Source of the DNA: Minisyncoccota bacterium
GTDB taxonomy: Bacteria; Patescibacteriota; Minisyncoccia; Phycocordibacterales; JABAAK01
Direction of reading: 5' to 3'
Assembly (NCBI GenBank): GCA_958295675.1
Contig: OY282360.1
Location: 658,026 to 722,025, forward strand
Length of the DNA: 64,000 nt
The position numbers and the translations under genes were made by a program. The notes beneath the pieces were generated by a model. The model was not told the origin of the DNA, ran no database searches, and saw nothing but the letters and a program-made list of their open reading frames with translations. Of the stretch, positions 1 through 53,123 are shown in pieces (position 1 is the first letter of the stretch; each line of letters starts with the position of its first letter).

Positions 1-515
1 TGACAAGTTATATAATTTTGGTATACTGCATGCAGGAATGAGGGGGAAATGTTGACATGGGGTGTTGAAGTGATGGGTGATTAGGTGAATTGATGTCGCG
101 ACTGTTGTTTTGCCCTTCGGGGTGAGGCACGACTGTGGCTGACAGGATCCGAAAATCTAGATCTGACGCACTGCGTTGGGCGACACACGGTTTCGACCGT
201 GTGAGTGCCGTGCAAAAGCGAGCGAGGTGTAGGGTTAGCGTTTAGTTGATCCAAAACCCTGCGAAGCAATGTGCGGTGCGAGTGTTGCACGGAGTACGCG
301 GTCTGAAGCCGAAAGGCAGAATGATTGTGAACGATGTGTGATGCGCTTGCCTGAAGTCAAACTTGTGGACCTGTAAGGTCACTGTTGACCTAAAGGTCAA
401 CAATAAGATGAAAAACAACGAAAAATCCATAGATACAATATAACCCTCTTCCTACTTTCCAATTAATTTCCAAACAACACACTATCCACACCGCATAACG
501 CGGGTTTTTTTATTG
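1..515 (+). ncRNA. Candidate structured small RNA, copy 1. A promoter-like tgacaa..tatact sits at the window edge. A GC-rich body (about 70-420) is rich in short hairpins with UUCG/GAAA loops. It ends at an intrinsic terminator at 491-511. Identity unknown.
   Basis: The 5' 70 nt and 3' 110 nt are homologous to the unit at 672-955. The interior is GC-rich compared with its flanks and contains hairpins such as cacggtttcgaccgtg, gccgaaaggc and gttgacctaaaggtcaac. No ORF is present on either strand. Confidence 0.3.
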
Positions 516-565
516 CATACAGAACTTCCTGTTACACAAAACTAATAATTTGTCTTCAACAAATA
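440..565 (+). repeat. Direct repeat copy A. The 3' segment, terminator and a pseudo leuS 3' end are homologous to 830-955.
   Basis: About 90% identity by eye over roughly 110 nt. The core reads aatttccaaacaacacacta..ccgcataaCgcgggtttttttattgcata..agaacttcctgttacacaaaact. Confidence 0.7.
491..511 (+). terminator. Intrinsic terminator (short GC hairpin plus T7).
   Basis: ccgcataacgcgg followed by ttttttt. Confidence 0.5.
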
Positions 566-671
566 TTACAAAATTGAATATGGAGTAGATTACATATCAA
601 TGTGTCTCCTTTAGCAAAAACACAACCTACGAATTACTATTTCACAATATTTTCTATAAAAATACAATCAA

Positions 672-701
672 TTGACACGCAACACGCCTTTCAAGTATAC
701 T
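672..701 (+). promoter_or_regulatory. Sigma70-like promoter (TTGACA-18 bp-TATACT) for sRNA-like unit copy 2.
   Basis: ttgaca at 672-677 and tatact at 696-701. The downstream transcript would end at the terminator at 881-901. Confidence 0.45.
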
Positions 702-829
702 ACATGCAAGGAGAGAGAAGAGTACTAATGGAGGATGCTTGTTGTTGGTTGTAGCATGGGTGACCTAGCACTTCGGTGTTGAAGATCCTAAAACCGGCTT
801 TAGCAGGCATCAATAAACTAACGCGATAT

Positions 830-955
830 ATTCTTCCCTTTCCCCACTCCATTTTTTTAATTTCCAAACAACACACTACACCGCATAATGCGGGTTTTTT
901 TATTGCATATAGAACTTCCTGTTACACAAAACTGATAATTCTGTCCTCAACAAAC
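830..955 (+). repeat. Direct repeat copy B. It overlaps the true leuS 3' end.
   Basis: Same sequence as 440-565. The reverse complement of 922-955 encodes the leuS C-terminus ..FVEDRIISFV*. Confidence 0.7.
881..901 (+). terminator. Intrinsic terminator, a paralog of the one at 491-511.
   Basis: ccgcataatgcgg followed by ttttttt. Confidence 0.5.
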
Positions 956-3291
956 ACCTTAACAGCAAGTCCTTTGGTACGATTAGCGAGTGCTGTGTTC
1001 TCAGCAATGCTTCTCAGCACGATTTCCTGATTGCTGCCTCGAGATACTGTGACGGTGCCTCGTGTTTTACCCAACACTTGAACGGCAATAACCACAGTAT
1101 CCCGCTGTGCTGACTCTGCATTACCCTGAGGAAAATGTGAGAGATGCACGGATTCATTATGACCAAGATCGCGCCACAGCACTTCAGTGATGTACGGCGC
1201 GAACGGCGCAAGCATTTGAATAAGAGCGGTATAGGTTTCCTTCGGTACAGTATCGGCATCATACAACGCATTCGTAAGTATCATCAGCGACGAGACGGCG
1301 GTATTGAAACGGTACACGGCAATATCATCGGTAACTGAAAGTATGGTCTCATGCTGCAGCTGCAGCAAAGCGCGATCAGGCGCGCTATCCTGAACGCGGT
1401 CGCGAAGCGCATACACCCGCTCAAGAAACCGGCGCGGACCGGCAATTGCGCGACTGTCCCACGCGACGGTTTGTGAAAACGGCGCGATATGCGCGATATA
1501 TACGCGCAGCGCGTCAGCACCGATTGCATCAACGACAGCAACCGGATCAACAACATTACCGAGCCGCTTGCTCATCTTCCCGCCACCTTCCGCCTGCACG
1601 ATACCGACCGTTCTCAACGCGGCATACGGTTCAGCGGTGCTCACAACACCGATATCAAGCATCACTTTATGCCAAAAACGAGCGTAGATAAGGTGTCGAG
1701 CCGCGTGTTCCATGCCGCCGGTGTATATATCAACGGGCATCCACTGTTTTTCTTTTTCAGAATCAACCAACACGGTACTATTATGCGGATCAATATAGCG
1801 CAGATGGTACCATGACGATCCTGCCCACTGCGGCATAGTATTCGTCTCCCGCTTTCCTGCACCACCACACTGCGGACACGGTGCATTGACCCACTCCTCA
1901 ATGGCGGCAAGCGGTGATTCGGCAGTGCCGGTCGGTTCGTACGATGCCACATCGGGCAGAGTGACGGGCAAATCCTTGTCAGGCACCGGTACAACACCGC
2001 ACTTCCCACAGTGAATAAGCGGTATCGGCTCGCCCCAGTACCGCTGCCGGGAAAACACCCAATCCTGCAGACGATATACGGTTATTTTTTTACCGCCTGC
2101 CGCATTAGCCAGTAATGGTTTCGCCTGTTCGGACGGCGTACCGTCATACTCGCCGGAATGTATCAAAGGCGCATCAACAGGTGTATTAATAAGCGGAAGA
2201 TCGCCATCACCGGCAATCACCTGCGTAATAGAAAGGTTATAACGGACAGCAAACGCGAAATCTCTGGCATCGTGCGCCGGCGAACCGAAAACAGCACCGG
2301 TACCGTATCCACCGAGCACAAAATCAGCGATGAAGACAGGAATGTTCTTCTTGGTGAGCGGATGAACAGCGGAAATACCTTGCGCTAACACTCCTGTTTG
2401 CGCCTTATCCGTTTCAGCAGCTTTTGCTGTGTGTGCCCGTGTCCGGTACGCTTCAATCTCCTCCTTATTCTCCGCGTGCTTCAACAGCGTATCAACAAGC
2501 GTACTTTCCGGAGAAATCGCGATAAACGAACAACCGAATAAAGTATCGGGACGAGTTGTAAAGACATCAACGACACTGCCGACCGGTTCTATGGCGAACG
2601 GAATGGTGTACCCGTCACTTCTGCCAATCCAGTTCCGCTGTACTTCCTTTACGGAATCAGACCAGTCGTCCAATGTATCCAAATCATCCAACAGACGATC
2701 AGCATAGTCGGTGATACGCAGAACCCACTGCCGCATCGGTTTCCGCTCAACAGCGGATCCGCATCGTTCGCATGTCCCGGCATCTAAATCCTCATTGGCA
2801 AGACCGGTCTTGCATGACGGACACCAGTTTACCGGCATGTTTGACTCATACGCCAGTCCTTTTTTGAAAAGTTGTATAAAAATCCATTGTGTCCACTTAT
2901 AAAACGAAGGATCGGTGGTGTTGATTTCCCTATCCCAATCGTATGAAAGTCCGAGTCGGGAAATCTGATCTTTAAACACGGCAATATTCCGCGCGGTTGC
3001 CTCCTGAGGATGCTGTTTATTCTTTATAGCGTACTCCTCGGCAGGCAATCCGAATGCATCCCATCCCATAGGATGCAGCACTTGGTACCCGCGCATCCGC
3101 ATCATGCGGGCATATATATCGGCACCAATATATACCCGAGCGTGACCGACATGCAATCCTGATCCGGACGGATACGGAAACATAACCAGCGCATAGCACT
3201 TCTTCTTCCCGGAATCTTCATCCGTCCGATAGATGCTGTTCTGCTCCCATGTTCGCCGCCACTCCTCCTCTATAGCGCGATGATCATACAT
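922..3291 (-). CDS. leuS: Leucyl-tRNA synthetase
   Basis: 789 aa. Class I HIGH-like motif (PYPSGSGLHVGH) and KMSKRLGN. Typical LeuRS editing and anticodon-binding regions. Confidence 0.95.
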   Translation of the reverse strand: MYDHRAIEEEWRRTWEQNSIYRTDEDSGKKKCYALVMFPYPSGSGLHVGHARVYIGADIYARMMRMRGYQVLHPMGWDAFGLPAEEYAIKNKQHPQEATARNIAVFKDQISRLGLSYDWDREINTTDPSFYKWTQWIFIQLFKKGLAYESNMPVNWCPSCKTGLANEDLDAGTCERCGSAVERKPMRQWVLRITDYADRLLDDLDTLDDWSDSVKEVQRNWIGRSDGYTIPFAIEPVGSVVDVFTTRPDTLFGCSFIAISPESTLVDTLLKHAENKEEIEAYRTRAHTAKAAETDKAQTGVLAQGISAVHPLTKKNIPVFIADFVLGGYGTGAVFGSPAHDARDFAFAVRYNLSITQVIAGDGDLPLINTPVDAPLIHSGEYDGTPSEQAKPLLANAAGGKKITVYRLQDWVFSRQRYWGEPIPLIHCGKCGVVPVPDKDLPVTLPDVASYEPTGTAESPLAAIEEWVNAPCPQCGGAGKRETNTMPQWAGSSWYHLRYIDPHNSTVLVDSEKEKQWMPVDIYTGGMEHAARHLIYARFWHKVMLDIGVVSTAEPYAALRTVGIVQAEGGGKMSKRLGNVVDPVAVVDAIGADALRVYIAHIAPFSQTVAWDSRAIAGPRRFLERVYALRDRVQDSAPDRALLQLQHETILSVTDDIAVYRFNTAVSSLMILTNALYDADTVPKETYTALIQMLAPFAPYITEVLWRDLGHNESVHLSHFPQGNAESAQRDTVVIAVQVLGKTRGTVTVSRGSNQEIVLRSIAENTALANRTKGLAVKVFVEDRIISFV

Positions 3292-6264: not shown

Positions 6265-9200
6265 TTATTCTTCGAATGTCCAATCACTAACATCTTCAGC
6301 ATCAAAGATAGACCAACCAGAGAACCAATCGGTGTTGTTGCTGTTCGCCATACCATCCTCATCTAACGAATTCGGCGACCAAACAAAGTTATGAGCGGTC
6401 TTTGCTGCTCCTATTTCCAAGCCAACTTGCTTATCAGCATCAGGCTTGTTGTCGGCAACCAAGTCAATCGTGATGGATGCATCATCAGGAACACCGCCAA
6501 CATTAGCAGTAACTAAGAATTTTACAGGTCTGCCGTCGTCATCAATGGTCTGAATCTTGTTATCAGCAAACGAAAATTTCAGATTATCGCCGCTCAAAGT
6601 ACCGGTTGCAATAGAATCTACACCTGTTGAACCACGACGGAGGTTGAAGTCGCTGAGAATGGATGTATTCCCAGTCACTGAGAGAGTAACTTGACCAAGA
6701 TACACTTCACCTGCGTCATCCGGTACAGTAACCTCAAACTCGTAGAGTTTTTGATTATTACCTCGCTTGTATCTGTTATCGTCTCCATTACCGCTTGCGG
6801 ACACAGTCGGCACCGATGGGAATGCAACCGCAGAGGTTACATTGCCTGAAGGAATGGTGTGTGCGGTTACAGTTTCGGTATCACTCTCACTACCTTCCCA
6901 AACAACCACTAACTTAGCGGCCTGCAGGTACTGACCTGCCTTACCACTATTCTGACTATCACGAATGCCATGTAGATCAAGCTCAATAGTCGCGTTAACA
7001 TCACCATCGGCAACCCTAACGGTCTCGTTCACATTCTCAAATGCAAGTGCATTTTCTACATTTACCGTACCAGCACCTGGATCCACATCAGTCAAAGTAC
7101 CCACAAAGTCACCGCCATCGGCATTGGTTGTCTCGCCATCAATAGTCAAAGTAGCACTCTGTAGCAGTCGCTCAATAGCACTCCGATTCACCGGCGTAGG
7201 ACCTGCGGGAAGTGTCAAACCGGAAAGGTAGACATCCTGAATAACGGCATCTTCCTGTTCTGCTTCAAACTTAATTTTAAGGATATCAACACCGTCCACA
7301 CCTCTTTCGCCGACAGCAACAGCAGTCAGTGTTTCGTCAGGGTCTCTAGATACAACAGAGAGTGTTCCCATACCAGACACTGCGATGATGTCGGAAGCAT
7401 CACCTGACTCCAAATCGTACTCAAAGTCATCCCGTCCAATTTCGTACTCAATACGATCCTTGTCAGATGCACGCACTTCGGTCTTCAATTGGAACTTGTG
7501 TCCGTTCTTCGCATTATCGTCAATACTGCAGACAATCTGCAGATAAGACTCTTCACCAGAATCAACGGTGTAATCGTCAAATCTGAACCGAATCTGATCA
7601 TCTTCAGGTGCATCTGCATCACCACCAGTACCACCTACTTCATCGTCATCACCCAAATCAGCCATACCGGTCAAGCTGCTGCGTGAATCGGCAACCTTAT
7701 CATCTCCGTCGTAGACTGCACAGTCATTCAAATCATCAAGGTTTGCTGGATTATCGTTACTGGATCCGTCTACCGCTTCTCCGCCTGATGCTTCAAAGGT
7801 GAGGTACGCACTGGTAATCTCAACATCGTCAACTGCATCATCTGCATCAATTTCCAGTGTACCGAAGACAACATCATCAGCACCGCCAACGAAAGAATCA
7901 TCATCAACATCGCGATCAGAAATCCTGAAGTTAACGACATTACCCTTGATATCTACCTGCTCAAACGCGCGGTTGCTGGCGAAATACTCGCCGGTACCGG
8001 CGTAGTCCTTCTCGGACCGCACACCCTCCGCACTATCAACATCAGTCAGGGTGAACTGCAGATCCGCGCCGTCAAACTGACTCCATGCTTCGTCAAGATC
8101 CGCGACTACTTCAAACACAACTTCGCGTTCGCCACGAACATCAACGGTAAAGGTGTCGGAGAAATCAACAGTTTCGGTGATGGCATTGCTGGAACTAGGT
8201 TTACTGAACTCAACATCATCATCCGCGAATGCTACCTTCTCGCCGTCAACGCGCAGATGCAAACCTCGCAGAACAACCTCATCCTCATCAGCGTCTTTCC
8301 AGTCGTTATCATTTCCAGTATTATACCTGAACCCACTCAACTCAACATCAAAAGTAAGGTCTTCCATCTCAACATCCTCACCTTCAAATTCAACCTCAAG
8401 TGCGCCAAGCACGCGGTCATCACCGTAGACAACCTCATCTTCAAAGCCGCGAATTCTGCCACCGGAACTTACTTCACCCGGCTGAATAGTCGCCACTTCA
8501 CCTTCAACATTGCTGTTGCCTTCTATCTGTCTTTCGTTACTACCGAGAGAAACAGGAAGGCCATATCCGTAGTCCTTACCGACAACATACACATCAACTA
8601 CATCATCAAGGTAAAACCTGATGGTTTCGTCGGTACCCCTGTCGGTGTTCATCTCAACCGATACCGTGATACTGTCGCTCTCTTCAATCAGCGCGCCGCG
8701 ACCGCCAAAGGTGATGACATATCGGTCACCGTCAACGGTTACATCGTGATCAACTTCGTCGTCGTCAACATACACCGTCACATCACCAATCTCATCCTCA
8801 TCCGCGGAACCGTTCTGATCAAGTGTCAGAGAACGAAGATATGCGTCTTCTTCGTCAGCACCTGATCCGCCGAGACTGATACGCACGGAAGCGACTTCAG
8901 TATCCTCGTCAAGATGCACTTCCGATTCAACGCTTTTAACACGCACACTCGCTGTCTGCAGTTGCACACTGCTTGACATCACATGCGCCGCGCCGCGAAC
9001 CGGGAATTGACCCTGCACTGCCGCGTCAGCGATAACCTCGGATACTTCAAGACCCGCGATAGCACCGGAATCAAGGTCGCTTGACTCGTTAGTAATATTA
9101 CCGACAACAACAAGAGTGATAGACCGATTTCTCGGAATAACAAAGTTGCCCCCGAGTGTCGCTTCGTCACGACTGTTGAGAGATCGGGAACTGCCGATCT

Positions 9201-9963
9201 GCACACCGTTCACATCAACCAGTGCGACAGTTTCAAAGTTGCTTCTGGAAGATAATCCGAATCGGCGCACTCTGATGCCCTCAATACGGACATCTTCATT
9301 GCCTGCTGTGAGCACAAATGAGGTGAATGGCACCCGCTGTGCGCCCTGCACGGCATATGAGTCGCCAGGCTGCTGCCCGGCTGTTACTGCCAACGATCCT
9401 CCGGTAACACTGACACGGGTCGTCGGAGTTGTCGGAGCTACAGGCACCGACGGCAGATTTGTTGTTGGCTGCGCGGTACCACACACATTATTCGCTTGAT
9501 TTCGCGTTGATGTGTAGAATCCGCCGGTTCCGCTCGTCAACCCAATGGGAGCCAAAATCTGCGCGGAGTGTAACTCCTGGAACTTACTGACTGCTCGAGC
9601 AGTCGCAGGTCCATAGTAGGTGGTCTCATTGCCGGGAGATCCAGCTCCTGACGAAGCCACCTGAGTTTGAGGGTTACCATTCAGGAATCTTTGCAACTGG
9701 CGGACGTCATCGCCAGAAGATCCGATGGAAAGGTTCCTTGCCCATGTGTACGGACACGCAGCATTGCTGCTCGCCGCCGCAACTGTCGCCGGCGGTGTTG
9801 TCGCGCCGCTAAGCGCGGTCAACTGTGCCGTTAGCGCGGCAAGCTGTGCCTGCAAATCTTCAACGCTCTCCTGTGCATGTACTGTCGCCGAAAAGGCAAC
9901 CGCAACAGAAACGATGAAGGCAATAGAAACCAACCCTACAGTTAATTTACTTGCAATATTCAT
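6265..9963 (-). CDS. Large secreted acidic surface protein with an N-terminal signal peptide and a PG_binding_1-like domain
   Basis: 1232 aa. Signal peptide MNIASKLTVGLVSIAFIVSVAVAFSATVHA. Motif DDVRQLQRFLN..YYGPATARAVSKFQ. Long D/E-rich beta-type repeats. Confidence 0.7.
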   Translation of the reverse strand: MNIASKLTVGLVSIAFIVSVAVAFSATVHAQESVEDLQAQLAALTAQLTALSGATTPPATVAAASSNAACPYTWARNLSIGSSGDDVRQLQRFLNGNPQTQVASSGAGSPGNETTYYGPATARAVSKFQELHSAQILAPIGLTSGTGGFYTSTRNQANNVCGTAQPTTNLPSVPVAPTTPTTRVSVTGGSLAVTAGQQPGDSYAVQGAQRVPFTSFVLTAGNEDVRIEGIRVRRFGLSSRSNFETVALVDVNGVQIGSSRSLNSRDEATLGGNFVIPRNRSITLVVVGNITNESSDLDSGAIAGLEVSEVIADAAVQGQFPVRGAAHVMSSSVQLQTASVRVKSVESEVHLDEDTEVASVRISLGGSGADEEDAYLRSLTLDQNGSADEDEIGDVTVYVDDDEVDHDVTVDGDRYVITFGGRGALIEESDSITVSVEMNTDRGTDETIRFYLDDVVDVYVVGKDYGYGLPVSLGSNERQIEGNSNVEGEVATIQPGEVSSGGRIRGFEDEVVYGDDRVLGALEVEFEGEDVEMEDLTFDVELSGFRYNTGNDNDWKDADEDEVVLRGLHLRVDGEKVAFADDDVEFSKPSSSNAITETVDFSDTFTVDVRGEREVVFEVVADLDEAWSQFDGADLQFTLTDVDSAEGVRSEKDYAGTGEYFASNRAFEQVDIKGNVVNFRISDRDVDDDSFVGGADDVVFGTLEIDADDAVDDVEITSAYLTFEASGGEAVDGSSNDNPANLDDLNDCAVYDGDDKVADSRSSLTGMADLGDDDEVGGTGGDADAPEDDQIRFRFDDYTVDSGEESYLQIVCSIDDNAKNGHKFQLKTEVRASDKDRIEYEIGRDDFEYDLESGDASDIIAVSGMGTLSVVSRDPDETLTAVAVGERGVDGVDILKIKFEAEQEDAVIQDVYLSGLTLPAGPTPVNRSAIERLLQSATLTIDGETTNADGGDFVGTLTDVDPGAGTVNVENALAFENVNETVRVADGDVNATIELDLHGIRDSQNSGKAGQYLQAAKLVVVWEGSESDTETVTAHTIPSGNVTSAVAFPSVPTVSASGNGDDNRYKRGNNQKLYEFEVTVPDDAGEVYLGQVTLSVTGNTSILSDFNLRRGSTGVDSIATGTLSGDNLKFSFADNKIQTIDDDGRPVKFLVTANVGGVPDDASITIDLVADNKPDADKQVGLEIGAAKTAHNFVWSPNSLDEDGMANSNNTDWFSGWSIFDAEDVSDWTFEE

Positions 9964-27657: not shown

Positions 27658-27746
27658 CGGAGAGGGTGGGATTCGAACCCACGGTGCGGTGTGACCCGCA
27701 CACTCGTACTCCAAACGAGCGCCTTCGACCACTCAGCCACCTCTCC
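27658..27746 (-). tRNA. tRNA-Ser (anticodon GGA), type II long variable arm
   Basis: GGAGAGGTGGCTGAGTGGTCGAAGGCGCTCGTTTGGAGTACGAGTGTGCGGGTCACACCGCACCGTGGGTTCGAATCCCACCCTCTCCG. Anticodon loop TTGGAGT. Confidence 0.85.
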
Positions 27747-34565: not shown

Positions 34566-34930
34566 AAATTGAAAATATGCTTTCTACACACATATAGTAT
34601 ACATACGCTTTATCTTTCGGTGTTTATTTTCAAGATATTTCTAAGGCACTGAAACAATGCAAAAATCAAGTATTTTTGGTATATACTTCACCTTAAACAT
34701 TCGATATTTTGATAAATAATCATTTTTCACACATTCAATAATACCTTGTATTTATTGCGATTTGTATACTACTATGATAAATAATGAAATTAGTCGGTGA
34801 AAATAATTACAATTTTTGTTTCGTAAAAAAGCCCGAAAGAGGAAATGTCTTGTTATATACCCTATCATTCAGTTTCTCCAAATCCAGCAAAATTTTTTTC
34901 CGTCTTGGGCTTCCTCCTGAGTTATAAATC

Positions 34931-41364: not shown

Positions 41365-41437
41365 TCCACCCGCCTGGACTCGAACCAGGAACCGCGTGTG
41401 TATAAGACACGTGCTCTACCAATTGAGCTACAGGTGG
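41365..41437 (-). tRNA. tRNA-Ile (anticodon UAU)
   Basis: CCACCTGTAGCTCAATTGGTAGAGCACGTGTCTTATACACACGCGGTTCCTGGTTCGAGTCCAGGCGGGTGGA. Anticodon loop CTTATAC. Confidence 0.8.
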
Positions 41438-45295: not shown

Positions 45296-45651
45296 GGGGG
45301 TGTCAGGCTTTGACAGTTGACATGCCCTGTGAATGGAATGCGTGGTAGTGAGAGGTCACTATAATCACCGAAACCTTGCAAATAAACTTGCACAGATGTT
45401 CAACAGAACACCTGCCCTCGCGTACGCATAACAATGCCCGTGAGGCATCCGCAGGATGATTCTCACTAATCCAAACGGATGTAAGATAATGTGAGAAACA
45501 CGGCGTGCTGTACTACGCTTCAAACAGCATACGAAAAGTAAACGAACGAAGCGGTTTTTGGTCTGTGAGCGAACCTATCGCCCACTACGCCACGAAAACA
45601 TTCTTCGCAGTGTCAATATGGACGGGAGTTCAATTCTCCCCACCTCCACCA
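45296..45651 (+). ncRNA. ssrA: tmRNA (ssrA)
   Basis: 5' GGGGGTG pairs with the 3' CACCTCC-A-CCA, including G3-U70. T-arm GGGAGTTCAATTCTCCC. Internal tag ORF ..gca aat aaa ctt gca cag atg ttc aac aga aca cct gcc ctc gcg tac gca taa (ANKLAQMFNRTPALAYA*). Adjacent to smpB. Confidence 0.85.
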
Positions 45652-52957: not shown

Positions 52958-53031
52958 CTCCTCGTAGCTCAGCTGGATAGAGCAACTCCCTTCTAAGGAG
53001 TAGGTCGCAGGTTCGAATCCTGCCGAGGAGG
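52958..53031 (+). tRNA. tRNA-Arg (anticodon UCU)
   Basis: CTCCTCGTAGCTCAGCTGGATAGAGCAACTCCCTTCTAAGGAGTAGGTCGCAGGTTCGAATCCTGCCGAGGAGG. Confidence 0.85.
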
Positions 53032-53051: not shown

Positions 53052-53123
53052 CTCCCCGTAGTTTAACGGATAGAACACAGGCTTCCGGAGCCTGCGATGC
53101 GGGTTCAATTCCTGCCGGGGAGG
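53052..53123 (+). tRNA. tRNA-Arg (anticodon CCG)
   Basis: CTCCCCGTAGTTTAACGGATAGAACACAGGCTTCCGGAGCCTGCGATGCGGGTTCAATTCCTGCCGGGGAGG. Confidence 0.8.

Follow-up and report, generated by a model that had tools for sequence, protein, structure and literature searches.

What does a bacterium with a small genome keep in a long interval that encodes no evident protein? The question is raised by the DNA beside leuS in a 64-kb stretch of contig OY282360.1 from a Minisyncoccota bacterium (the whole stretch is called the window here), where positions 1-921 form the longest stretch without a long open reading frame (ORF). The source is a Kaiserbacteria-like genome of the Candidate Phyla Radiation (CPR), or Patescibacteria. 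Genomes of CPR bacteria are very small and tightly packed, so a 1.5-kb non-coding interval with two strongly promoted, structured candidate RNAs is unusual, and to our knowledge regulatory and catalytic RNAs have hardly been described in this radiation. An initial annotation had described two tandem, paralogous units resembling small RNAs (sRNAs) downstream of leuS, and had offered two readings: a non-coding RNA (ncRNA) family with a variable central domain, or a mobile or ribozyme-like insertion into a duplicated leuS end. Its description proved accurate; the paralogous-ncRNA reading is the best available, and the mobile or ribozyme-like reading is without support. We call the predicted transcripts RNA1 and RNA2 and favor the conclusion that they are real, lineage-specific ncRNA genes made by duplication, to which we give about an even chance of being correct.

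The features on which the argument turns are the following.

1-27, plus strand: RNA1 promoter; -35 hexamer (T)TGACA cut by the window edge, 16-nt spacer, -10 hexamer TATACT at 22-27
34-511, plus strand: RNA1, predicted non-coding transcript of ~477 nt; fold -160.7 kcal/mol, z -3.2
72-400, plus strand: GC-rich multi-hairpin domain of RNA1; about six hairpins, with two UUCG loops and one GAAA loop, closed by ~78-88/347-360
463-563, plus strand: copy A of the 3' module; comprises the CA-rich tail, terminator 491-511 and, as a pseudo-copy, the leuS downstream flank with the final 33 nt of leuS (531-563, with a frameshift)
564-671, no strand: hypervariable AT-rich spacer between the units
672-701, plus strand: RNA2 promoter; TTGACA (672-677), 18-nt spacer, TATACT (696-701); 11/12 match to the consensus
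708-901, plus strand: RNA2, predicted non-coding transcript of ~194 nt; a rod, then a single-stranded tail and terminator 881-901
857-954, plus strand: 3' module, copy B; RNA2 tail, terminator 881-901 and the genuine leuS 3' end
922-3291, minus strand: leuS, leucyl-tRNA synthetase, 789 aa, from its ORF and homologues; convergent with RNA2

Promoters and terminators of the two units

Two blocks on the plus strand, RNA1 at ~34-511 and RNA2 at ~708-901, have the appearance of transcription units and are convergent with leuS. For comparison we used the nearest LeuS relative in a large protein collection, a single strain with 99% identity (protein P0002, on contig L081) whose leuS differs from that of the window by 2.5% in nucleotides; we refer to this strain as L081. 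The pattern TTGACA-N16-18-TATAMT has one match in the whole window, the RNA2 promoter, compared with 0.03 expected, and L081 has exactly two such promoters, one ahead of each RNA. The RNA1 promoter is complete in L081 (TTGACA-16 nt-TATACT) and differs there from the window at only 1 of 33 positions. In the RNA2 promoter block (671-707), 9 of 37 positions have changed between the strains, none of them in the hexamers, where all 12 positions are kept.

Each unit ends in a hairpin, CCGCATAAYGCGG, followed by seven T residues (491-511 and 881-901), so that both 3' blocks carry the intrinsic terminator that had been described. The terminator scan accepts only 881-901; the stem at 491-511 has 4 bp in the window and 5 bp in L081. 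Each non-coding interval is in this way enclosed by a promoter and an intrinsic terminator of its own, as in a stand-alone ncRNA gene. From these terminators and from the promoters, which are the strongest sigma-70 consensus promoters of the window, we infer that the two are adjacent, independently transcribed units.

The units also have common ends. The sequence GTATACTNCATGCA is found at 21-34 and 695-708, and GGTGTTGAAG, a 10-mer that is not significant alone, at 61-70 and 775-784. At the 3' side the direct repeats are 100% identical between 463-484 and 857-878, 95% between 488-550 and 878-940, and 92% between 551-563 and 942-954. A 22-mer and the terminator 23-mer of this module each occur exactly twice in the 64 kb, compared with 0.00 expected. 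These results bear out the claim of two paralogous units with shared 5' and 3' ends. The real end of leuS, whose minus-strand stop codon occupies 922-924, reads FVEDRIISFV before the stop, as reported. By contrast, the copy in module A, which had been given as FVEDKLLVLC and a stop, actually reads FVEDKLLVLCNR and has no in-frame stop, because the loss of 1 nt shifts its TAA to another frame. The window contains no complementary site (three or fewer mismatches) for the 22-mer of the single-stranded tail.

In L081, ~470 nt more of AT-rich non-coding DNA (9396-9857) lies upstream of the point corresponding to window position 1, before a divergent gene that we call sigma70_r4. This DNA has a third promoter-like box, TATACTGCAT, at 9611-9630, 246 nt upstream of the RNA1 promoter and with no clear terminator.

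Predicted structures of RNA1 and RNA2

The predicted folds divide the two RNAs into the following parts, all on the plus strand.

34-44: RNA1, 5' clamp strand
54-66: RNA1, small hairpin
72-400: RNA1, GC-rich domain
401-443: RNA1, A-rich linker
444-453: RNA1, 3' clamp strand
463-490: RNA1, CA-rich tail
491-511: RNA1, terminator
710-724/830-844: RNA2, clamp of the ~140-nt rod, followed by an internal loop
735-752/794-811: RNA2, stem of the rod
766-780: RNA2, apical hairpin of the rod

The most pronounced structure is the 72-400 domain. It is 55% GC, and the GC fraction is 0.53-0.56 across 51-350 compared with 0.27-0.36 in the flanks, so the segment stands out as the initial annotation had observed; the UUCG and GAAA loops that it had pointed to are also present in the predicted fold. 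On the plus strand the domain folds at -128.7 kcal/mol with a z of -4.9 relative to shuffled sequences, whereas the minus strand reaches a z of only -1.4. Folding well below shuffles is thus specific to the strand of the predicted transcript. The L081 version, which has 25 differences, independently forms the same hairpins and the same closing helix (z -4.5). RNA2 also folds to the same rod in both strains (z -1.8 in the window and -3.8 in L081).

Both RNAs appear to be built on a common plan. In each, a purine-rich 5' end is predicted to form a clamp with a pyrimidine-rich segment close to the 3' end. This 3' clamp strand lies between an unpaired, A-rich strand on its 5' side and the CA-rich tail with the terminator on its 3' side. 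The two also have in common a small hairpin that ends in GGUGUUGAAG. Inside the clamp, RNA2 has a rod of ~75 nt and RNA1 has the GC-rich domain of ~330 nt. Global alignment of RNA1 with RNA2 is convincing in the 3' module alone; elsewhere identity is limited to short islands in the promoter, clamp and linker. A domain difference between paralogues is therefore a safer description than an insertion. That RNA1 is interrupted by an insertion, as had been suggested, is an interpretation, since RNA2 has its own ~75-nt rod at the equivalent place. We propose two adjacent ncRNA genes on the strand opposite leuS that would share a scaffold, made of the 5'/3' clamp, the A-rich unpaired strand, the CA-rich single-stranded tail and the intrinsic terminator, and would differ in the central domain.

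Two-sequence consensus folds (alifold, window and L081) contain no broken pairs and one double change per RNA, U-A to C-G in RNA1 and G-C to A-U in RNA2. In addition, the two strains differ by one inserted G in the 5' clamp strand of RNA1, for which an inserted C in the 3' clamp strand compensates. For RNA2, the predicted pairs show 14 one-sided changes and one double change. The covariation check that had been suggested gave no statistically significant covariation with the sequences of two strains.

A pair of mutually exclusive hairpins near the end of the GC-rich domain had also been reported. Both are in the sequence, at 377-390 and 384-401, but a switch between them is not supported by L081, because the substitution U379C weakens the alternative hairpin there and the 384-401 hairpin is kept (A400G gives a U-G pair). 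We rejected a riboswitch-like switch at 377-401 on these grounds.

Coding potential

We found small ORFs of up to 69 aa in the region, so the claim that neither strand has an ORF does not stand as worded; however, none of them is conserved or has homologues, and their extents and boundaries differ between the strains. Both strands are therefore free of a conserved ORF, as expected for an ncRNA gene. A protein database search with the two 69-aa ORFs, one per strand, which as spurious ORFs overlapping RNA1 could also reveal homologous DNA, returned no homologues beyond L081's own ORF. For the two longest minus-strand ORFs the substitutions are distributed over codon positions as 9/1/4 and 7/4/4, with no concentration at the third position. 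In RNA2, 1-2-nt frame-breaking indels between the window and L081 rule out coding. Because ORF limits shift between strains, substitutions are not codon-like and indels break the frame, coding hypotheses for the units were rejected.

A related alternative is a type I toxin-antitoxin or small-peptide locus, in which a hydrophobic peptide starting MDFSLFFILLLTF (minus strand, 242-430) would be the toxin and the plus-strand RNA its antisense partner. The ORF has a hydrophobic N-terminus, and the 5'/3' clamp sequesters a purine-rich, Shine-Dalgarno-like stretch, which resembles the folding of toxin mRNAs. However, the short hydrophobic ORF is not conserved, being 62 aa in the window and stopping after 18 aa in L081; the 8-aa ORF of RNA2 loses its ATG in L081; and the substitution pattern is again not that of codons. 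We consider this explanation extremely improbable.

Searches for known RNA families and homologues

Rfam 15 gave no match at gathering thresholds on positions 1-1100. When the threshold was relaxed to E<=10, at which even very weak similarity should show in so short a sequence, this 1.1-kb region gave only a 9.6-bit chance match to a viral untranslated region model, and in the corresponding region of L081 (8360-9870) the best match had 20 bits against a threshold of 58.7. No RNase P, signal recognition particle (SRP), 6S, tmRNA, T-box, riboswitch, intron or ribozyme model matched the units even at E<=10, and no HEARO/omega RNA, OLE, GOLLD, ROOL or raiA match was found with Rfam 15. The earlier failure to recognize RNase P, SRP, 6S, tmRNA or T-box motifs is therefore upheld, and the ribozyme-like reading lacks any intron or ribozyme model match. 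Neither tRNA-like elements (ARAGORN) nor tandem repeats (Tandem Repeats Finder) were detected in the region.

These results bear on the idea that the units are highly divergent housekeeping RNAs, with RNA2 as a decoy for RNA polymerase in the manner of 6S, or RNA1 as an RNA of the RNase P or SRP type beyond the reach of Rfam. RNA2 is loosely 6S-like in that, within its 140-nt rod, an asymmetric internal loop (9/17 nt) separates the clamp from a second long stem, and the 64-kb window contains no RNase P, SRP or 6S gene in an Rfam scan. Like 6S RNA (RF00013), RNA2 has paired ends and an internal bubble between two long irregular stems in a rod of ~140 nt. However, it has no covariance-model match at E<=10, its bubble is small and asymmetric, it carries a 55-nt 3' extension with the terminator, it evolves fast (15%) and it is not conserved in relatives. 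In these respects RNA2 departs from the 6S pattern, in which relatives conserve a rod of 150-200 nt that has a large bubble at its center. The relaxed search of the 1.1-kb region, the fast evolution of the units and their absence from the syntenic locus in relatives all speak against a housekeeping role, and since the window is only ~9% of the genome the housekeeping RNAs are probably elsewhere. We think it very unlikely that either unit is such an RNA.

RNA1 can also be compared with orphan sRNA genes that end in an intrinsic terminator and with large structured ncRNA candidates recognized as GC-rich islands between genes, the class of OLE, GOLLD, ROOL and raiA. Like these, RNA1 has its own promoter and terminator, no ORF, a length of ~480 nt and a GC-rich, G-skewed structured core in AT-rich intergenic DNA. 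Unlike these, it has no sequence or structure match, is found in two strains only, lacks covariation support and diverges at a near-neutral rate.

The searches for homologous DNA covered phage, plasmid, IMG/VR and metagenome collections as well as related loci. BLAST against phages and plasmids gave only chance matches of 45-50 nt, IMG/VR k-mer scans gave no matches or random ones inside coding regions, and a metagenome scan with an RNA1 21-mer returned nothing. The same scan with a 20-mer from the tail returned one contig (L086, 2.7 kb), in which the exact 20-mer AATTTCCAAACAACACACTA occurs beside a CCTCTTTCTACC stretch at 751-770 and ~1975-1995 and in which the complement of AATTTCCAAACAACACACTA lies in the near-identical 5' untranslated regions of two small genes. 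This match may be unrelated or coincidental.

Conservation and the possibility of a non-functional relic

LeuS of the window has its best matches among Paceibacteria, Parcubacteria and Kaiserbacteria, with at most 53% identity to any species representative in a genome-collection scan, too distant for a useful comparison of synteny. In the large protein collection, the next relatives after L081 are at 70-74% identity, and an exact-protein look-up for the window LeuS and for P0001 gave no identical record. The order leuS-sigma70_r4 is kept in 3 of 4 relatives with 70-74% LeuS identity. The gap between the two genes, which is 1487 nt in L081, measures 208 nt in L082 (8371-8578), 586 nt in L084 (7377-7962) and 659 nt in L083 (7374-8032), with unrelated content. 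As side observations, the L083 gap has a G-rich stretch, on the strand matching the plus strand of the window, with three CACCAGCAGCATTACCCCC-like repeats, and it also has a small clamp-plus-terminator unit.

Several results weigh against two functional RNA genes. The units were found only in the window and in L081. Neither RNA is present at this locus in the relatives with 70-74% LeuS identity, whose sequence there is different; nhmmer found no homologue of RNA1 or RNA2 in relatives L082-L085, and neither did an RNA2 covariance model. None of the collections searched held a homologue. RNA1 diverges between the two strains by 6.8%, compared with 7.8% at four-fold degenerate leuS sites, and RNA2 by 15-17%, while most other intergenic regions diverge by 0-3%. 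Because RNA1 is near the four-fold-site rate and RNA2 changes faster, purifying selection is weak or absent. We also applied an unbiased permutation test, in which the structure was taken from the window sequence alone and the L081 substitutions were compared with randomly relocated ones. Preservation of structure was not significant in this test (P 0.14-0.58 for RNA1 and 0.09-0.16 for RNA2), which with two sequences has little power in either direction. On a finer scale, the scaffold parts of RNA1 are ~2% divergent compared with 7.4% in the 72-400 core, and are thus about three times better conserved, and the spacer between the units (564-671) differs from that of L081 by substitutions at 33-35% of positions and by an 87-nt indel.

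The strongest competitor to the RNA gene reading draws on these results. The leuS-sigma70_r4 gap could be a place that gathers and turns over junk or foreign DNA, in which case the GC-rich segment would be a decaying foreign fragment, the duplication neutral, and the promoters and terminators leftovers that perhaps still fire. Divergence at or above the neutral rate, the non-significant structure-preservation test, the variable length and content of the gap (208, 586, 659 and 1487 nt) and the lack of homologues in the collections searched are all as expected for such a relic. By contrast, CPR genomes are compact and yet this is the largest inter-ORF gap of the 64-kb window. Two near-perfect promoters are kept, with hexamers conserved amid a diverged spacer; a strand-specific z of -4.5 to -4.9 is kept in both strains; the clamp shows compensatory insertions; and the RNA2 rod is kept despite 15% divergence. 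We regard such a relic, fast-decaying and unselected DNA with strong transcription signals, as less likely than RNA genes, but we give it a substantial chance all the same. Within the reach of these searches, the RNAs are confined to a single species-level lineage, at a locus that is a hot spot for the gain and loss of non-coding DNA. The proposal of an ncRNA family with a variable central domain remains the best available reading in that the units are paralogous, non-coding and sRNA-like; 'family' is a generous term for two paralogues in two near-identical strains.

Origin of the repeated module

The 3' modules of the two units give information about how the pair arose. In a four-way alignment (two copies in each of two strains), the two copies agree within each strain, reading T..T in the window as against C..C in L081, and one of these strain-specific variants is the leuS stop codon, which is TAA in the window and TGA in L081. 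At the distal end of the module, copy-specific differences are common to both strains, which indicates that the duplication predates the strain split. The central ~90 nt of the module is homogenized within each genome by gene conversion since the duplication. We propose that a local tandem duplication produced two paralogous RNA genes and that the duplicated segment would have taken in the final 33 nt of leuS together with the terminator that serves both leuS and the RNA. Afterwards gene conversion would have kept the ~90-nt module near-identical, and the remainder would have diverged quickly.

Site-specific integration typically leaves direct repeats in which a substitute copy supplies the 3' end of a gene, and we therefore also considered the remnant of a small integrative or mobile element at the leuS 3' end. 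The ~100-nt repeats would then be attL and attR, RNA2 (564-856) the cargo and the RNA1 core perhaps a second insertion. The flanking direct repeats (463-563 and 857-954) do enclose a 293-nt segment and carry the leuS 3'-end copy, as at att-site duplications, and the locus is variable among relatives; these repeats fit a tandem duplication as well. However, the genes called in L081 within ~6 kb of the locus in either direction include no integrase or recombinase, and such an element would measure only ~390 nt. No other copy of any part was found in the collections searched; for the GC-rich domain this covers the window, related loci, phage, plasmid, IMG/VR and metagenome sequences. The RNA1 domain is without terminal repeats, inverted ones included, and RNA2 gives no clean empty site for it. 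The repeats, moreover, evolve in concert and share orthologous copy-specific sites, as expected for an old in-situ duplication with gene conversion. An integrative element is improbable on this evidence, and in-situ tandem duplication of the RNA gene, the terminator and the leuS end fits the sequences better than site-specific integration.

Shared promoter and terminator modules are also a feature of tandemly duplicated sRNA paralogues such as Qrr, PrrF1/2, OmrA/B and 6S-1/6S-2. RNA1 and RNA2 resemble these: the paralogues are neighbors, their ends are conserved and their middles diverge, and the parts that they share evolve in concert. They differ in the extra ~330-nt structured domain of RNA1 and in a repeated module that includes part of leuS.

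Neighboring genes and other features of the window

The gene beyond the gap, sigma70_r4, has only a sigma-70 region-4 helix-turn-helix at its N-terminus and a C-terminal domain of no known kind, and for this reason suggests no functional link to the RNAs. The only Rfam-recognized RNAs in the window are one tmRNA (75.5 bits) and four tRNAs; the five lie at 45296-45651 (plus strand), 27658-27746 (minus), 41365-41437 (minus), 52958-53031 (plus) and 53052-53123 (plus). The most AT-rich intergenic stretch of the window is at 34566-34930 (365 nt, 28% GC).

Two further observations concern protein genes near leuS. A 1232-aa ORF at 6265-9963 (minus strand) differs between the window and L081 by 17% in nucleotides plus 71 gap columns, compared with 2-5% for the neighboring genes; its L081 orthologue has a faint PG_binding_1 match, and it is probably a fast-evolving surface protein. 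Ribosomal protein L7/L12 (4865-5443, minus strand, 192 aa) has an acidic, Ala-rich N-terminal extension of ~70 aa, and its L082 orthologue has 160 aa.

Implications

If RNA1 and RNA2 are genes, they may act in trans as stable, structured RNAs, and protein-binding decoys or scaffolds would be likelier roles than antisense regulation. A role as stable, protein-binding RNAs is a tentative guess, to which we give a low probability. Going further, a new class of large (~480 nt) structured ncRNAs in CPR/Patescibacteria might have its first observed member in RNA1, with a modular clamp scaffold shared with RNA2, swappable domains, the strongest promoters of the region and a dedicated biochemical role such as a protein-binding scaffold of an episymbiont. 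This is a speculative proposal that we hold to be doubtful.

Even if the units are non-functional, the locus shows that a streamlined genome can contain an intergenic hot spot of extreme variability. If they are real and functional, RNA1 would join the short list of large bacterial ncRNAs without a known function, and the pair would exemplify modular RNA evolution, in which a common scaffold is combined with a swapped domain and gene conversion extends over the 3' end of a protein gene.

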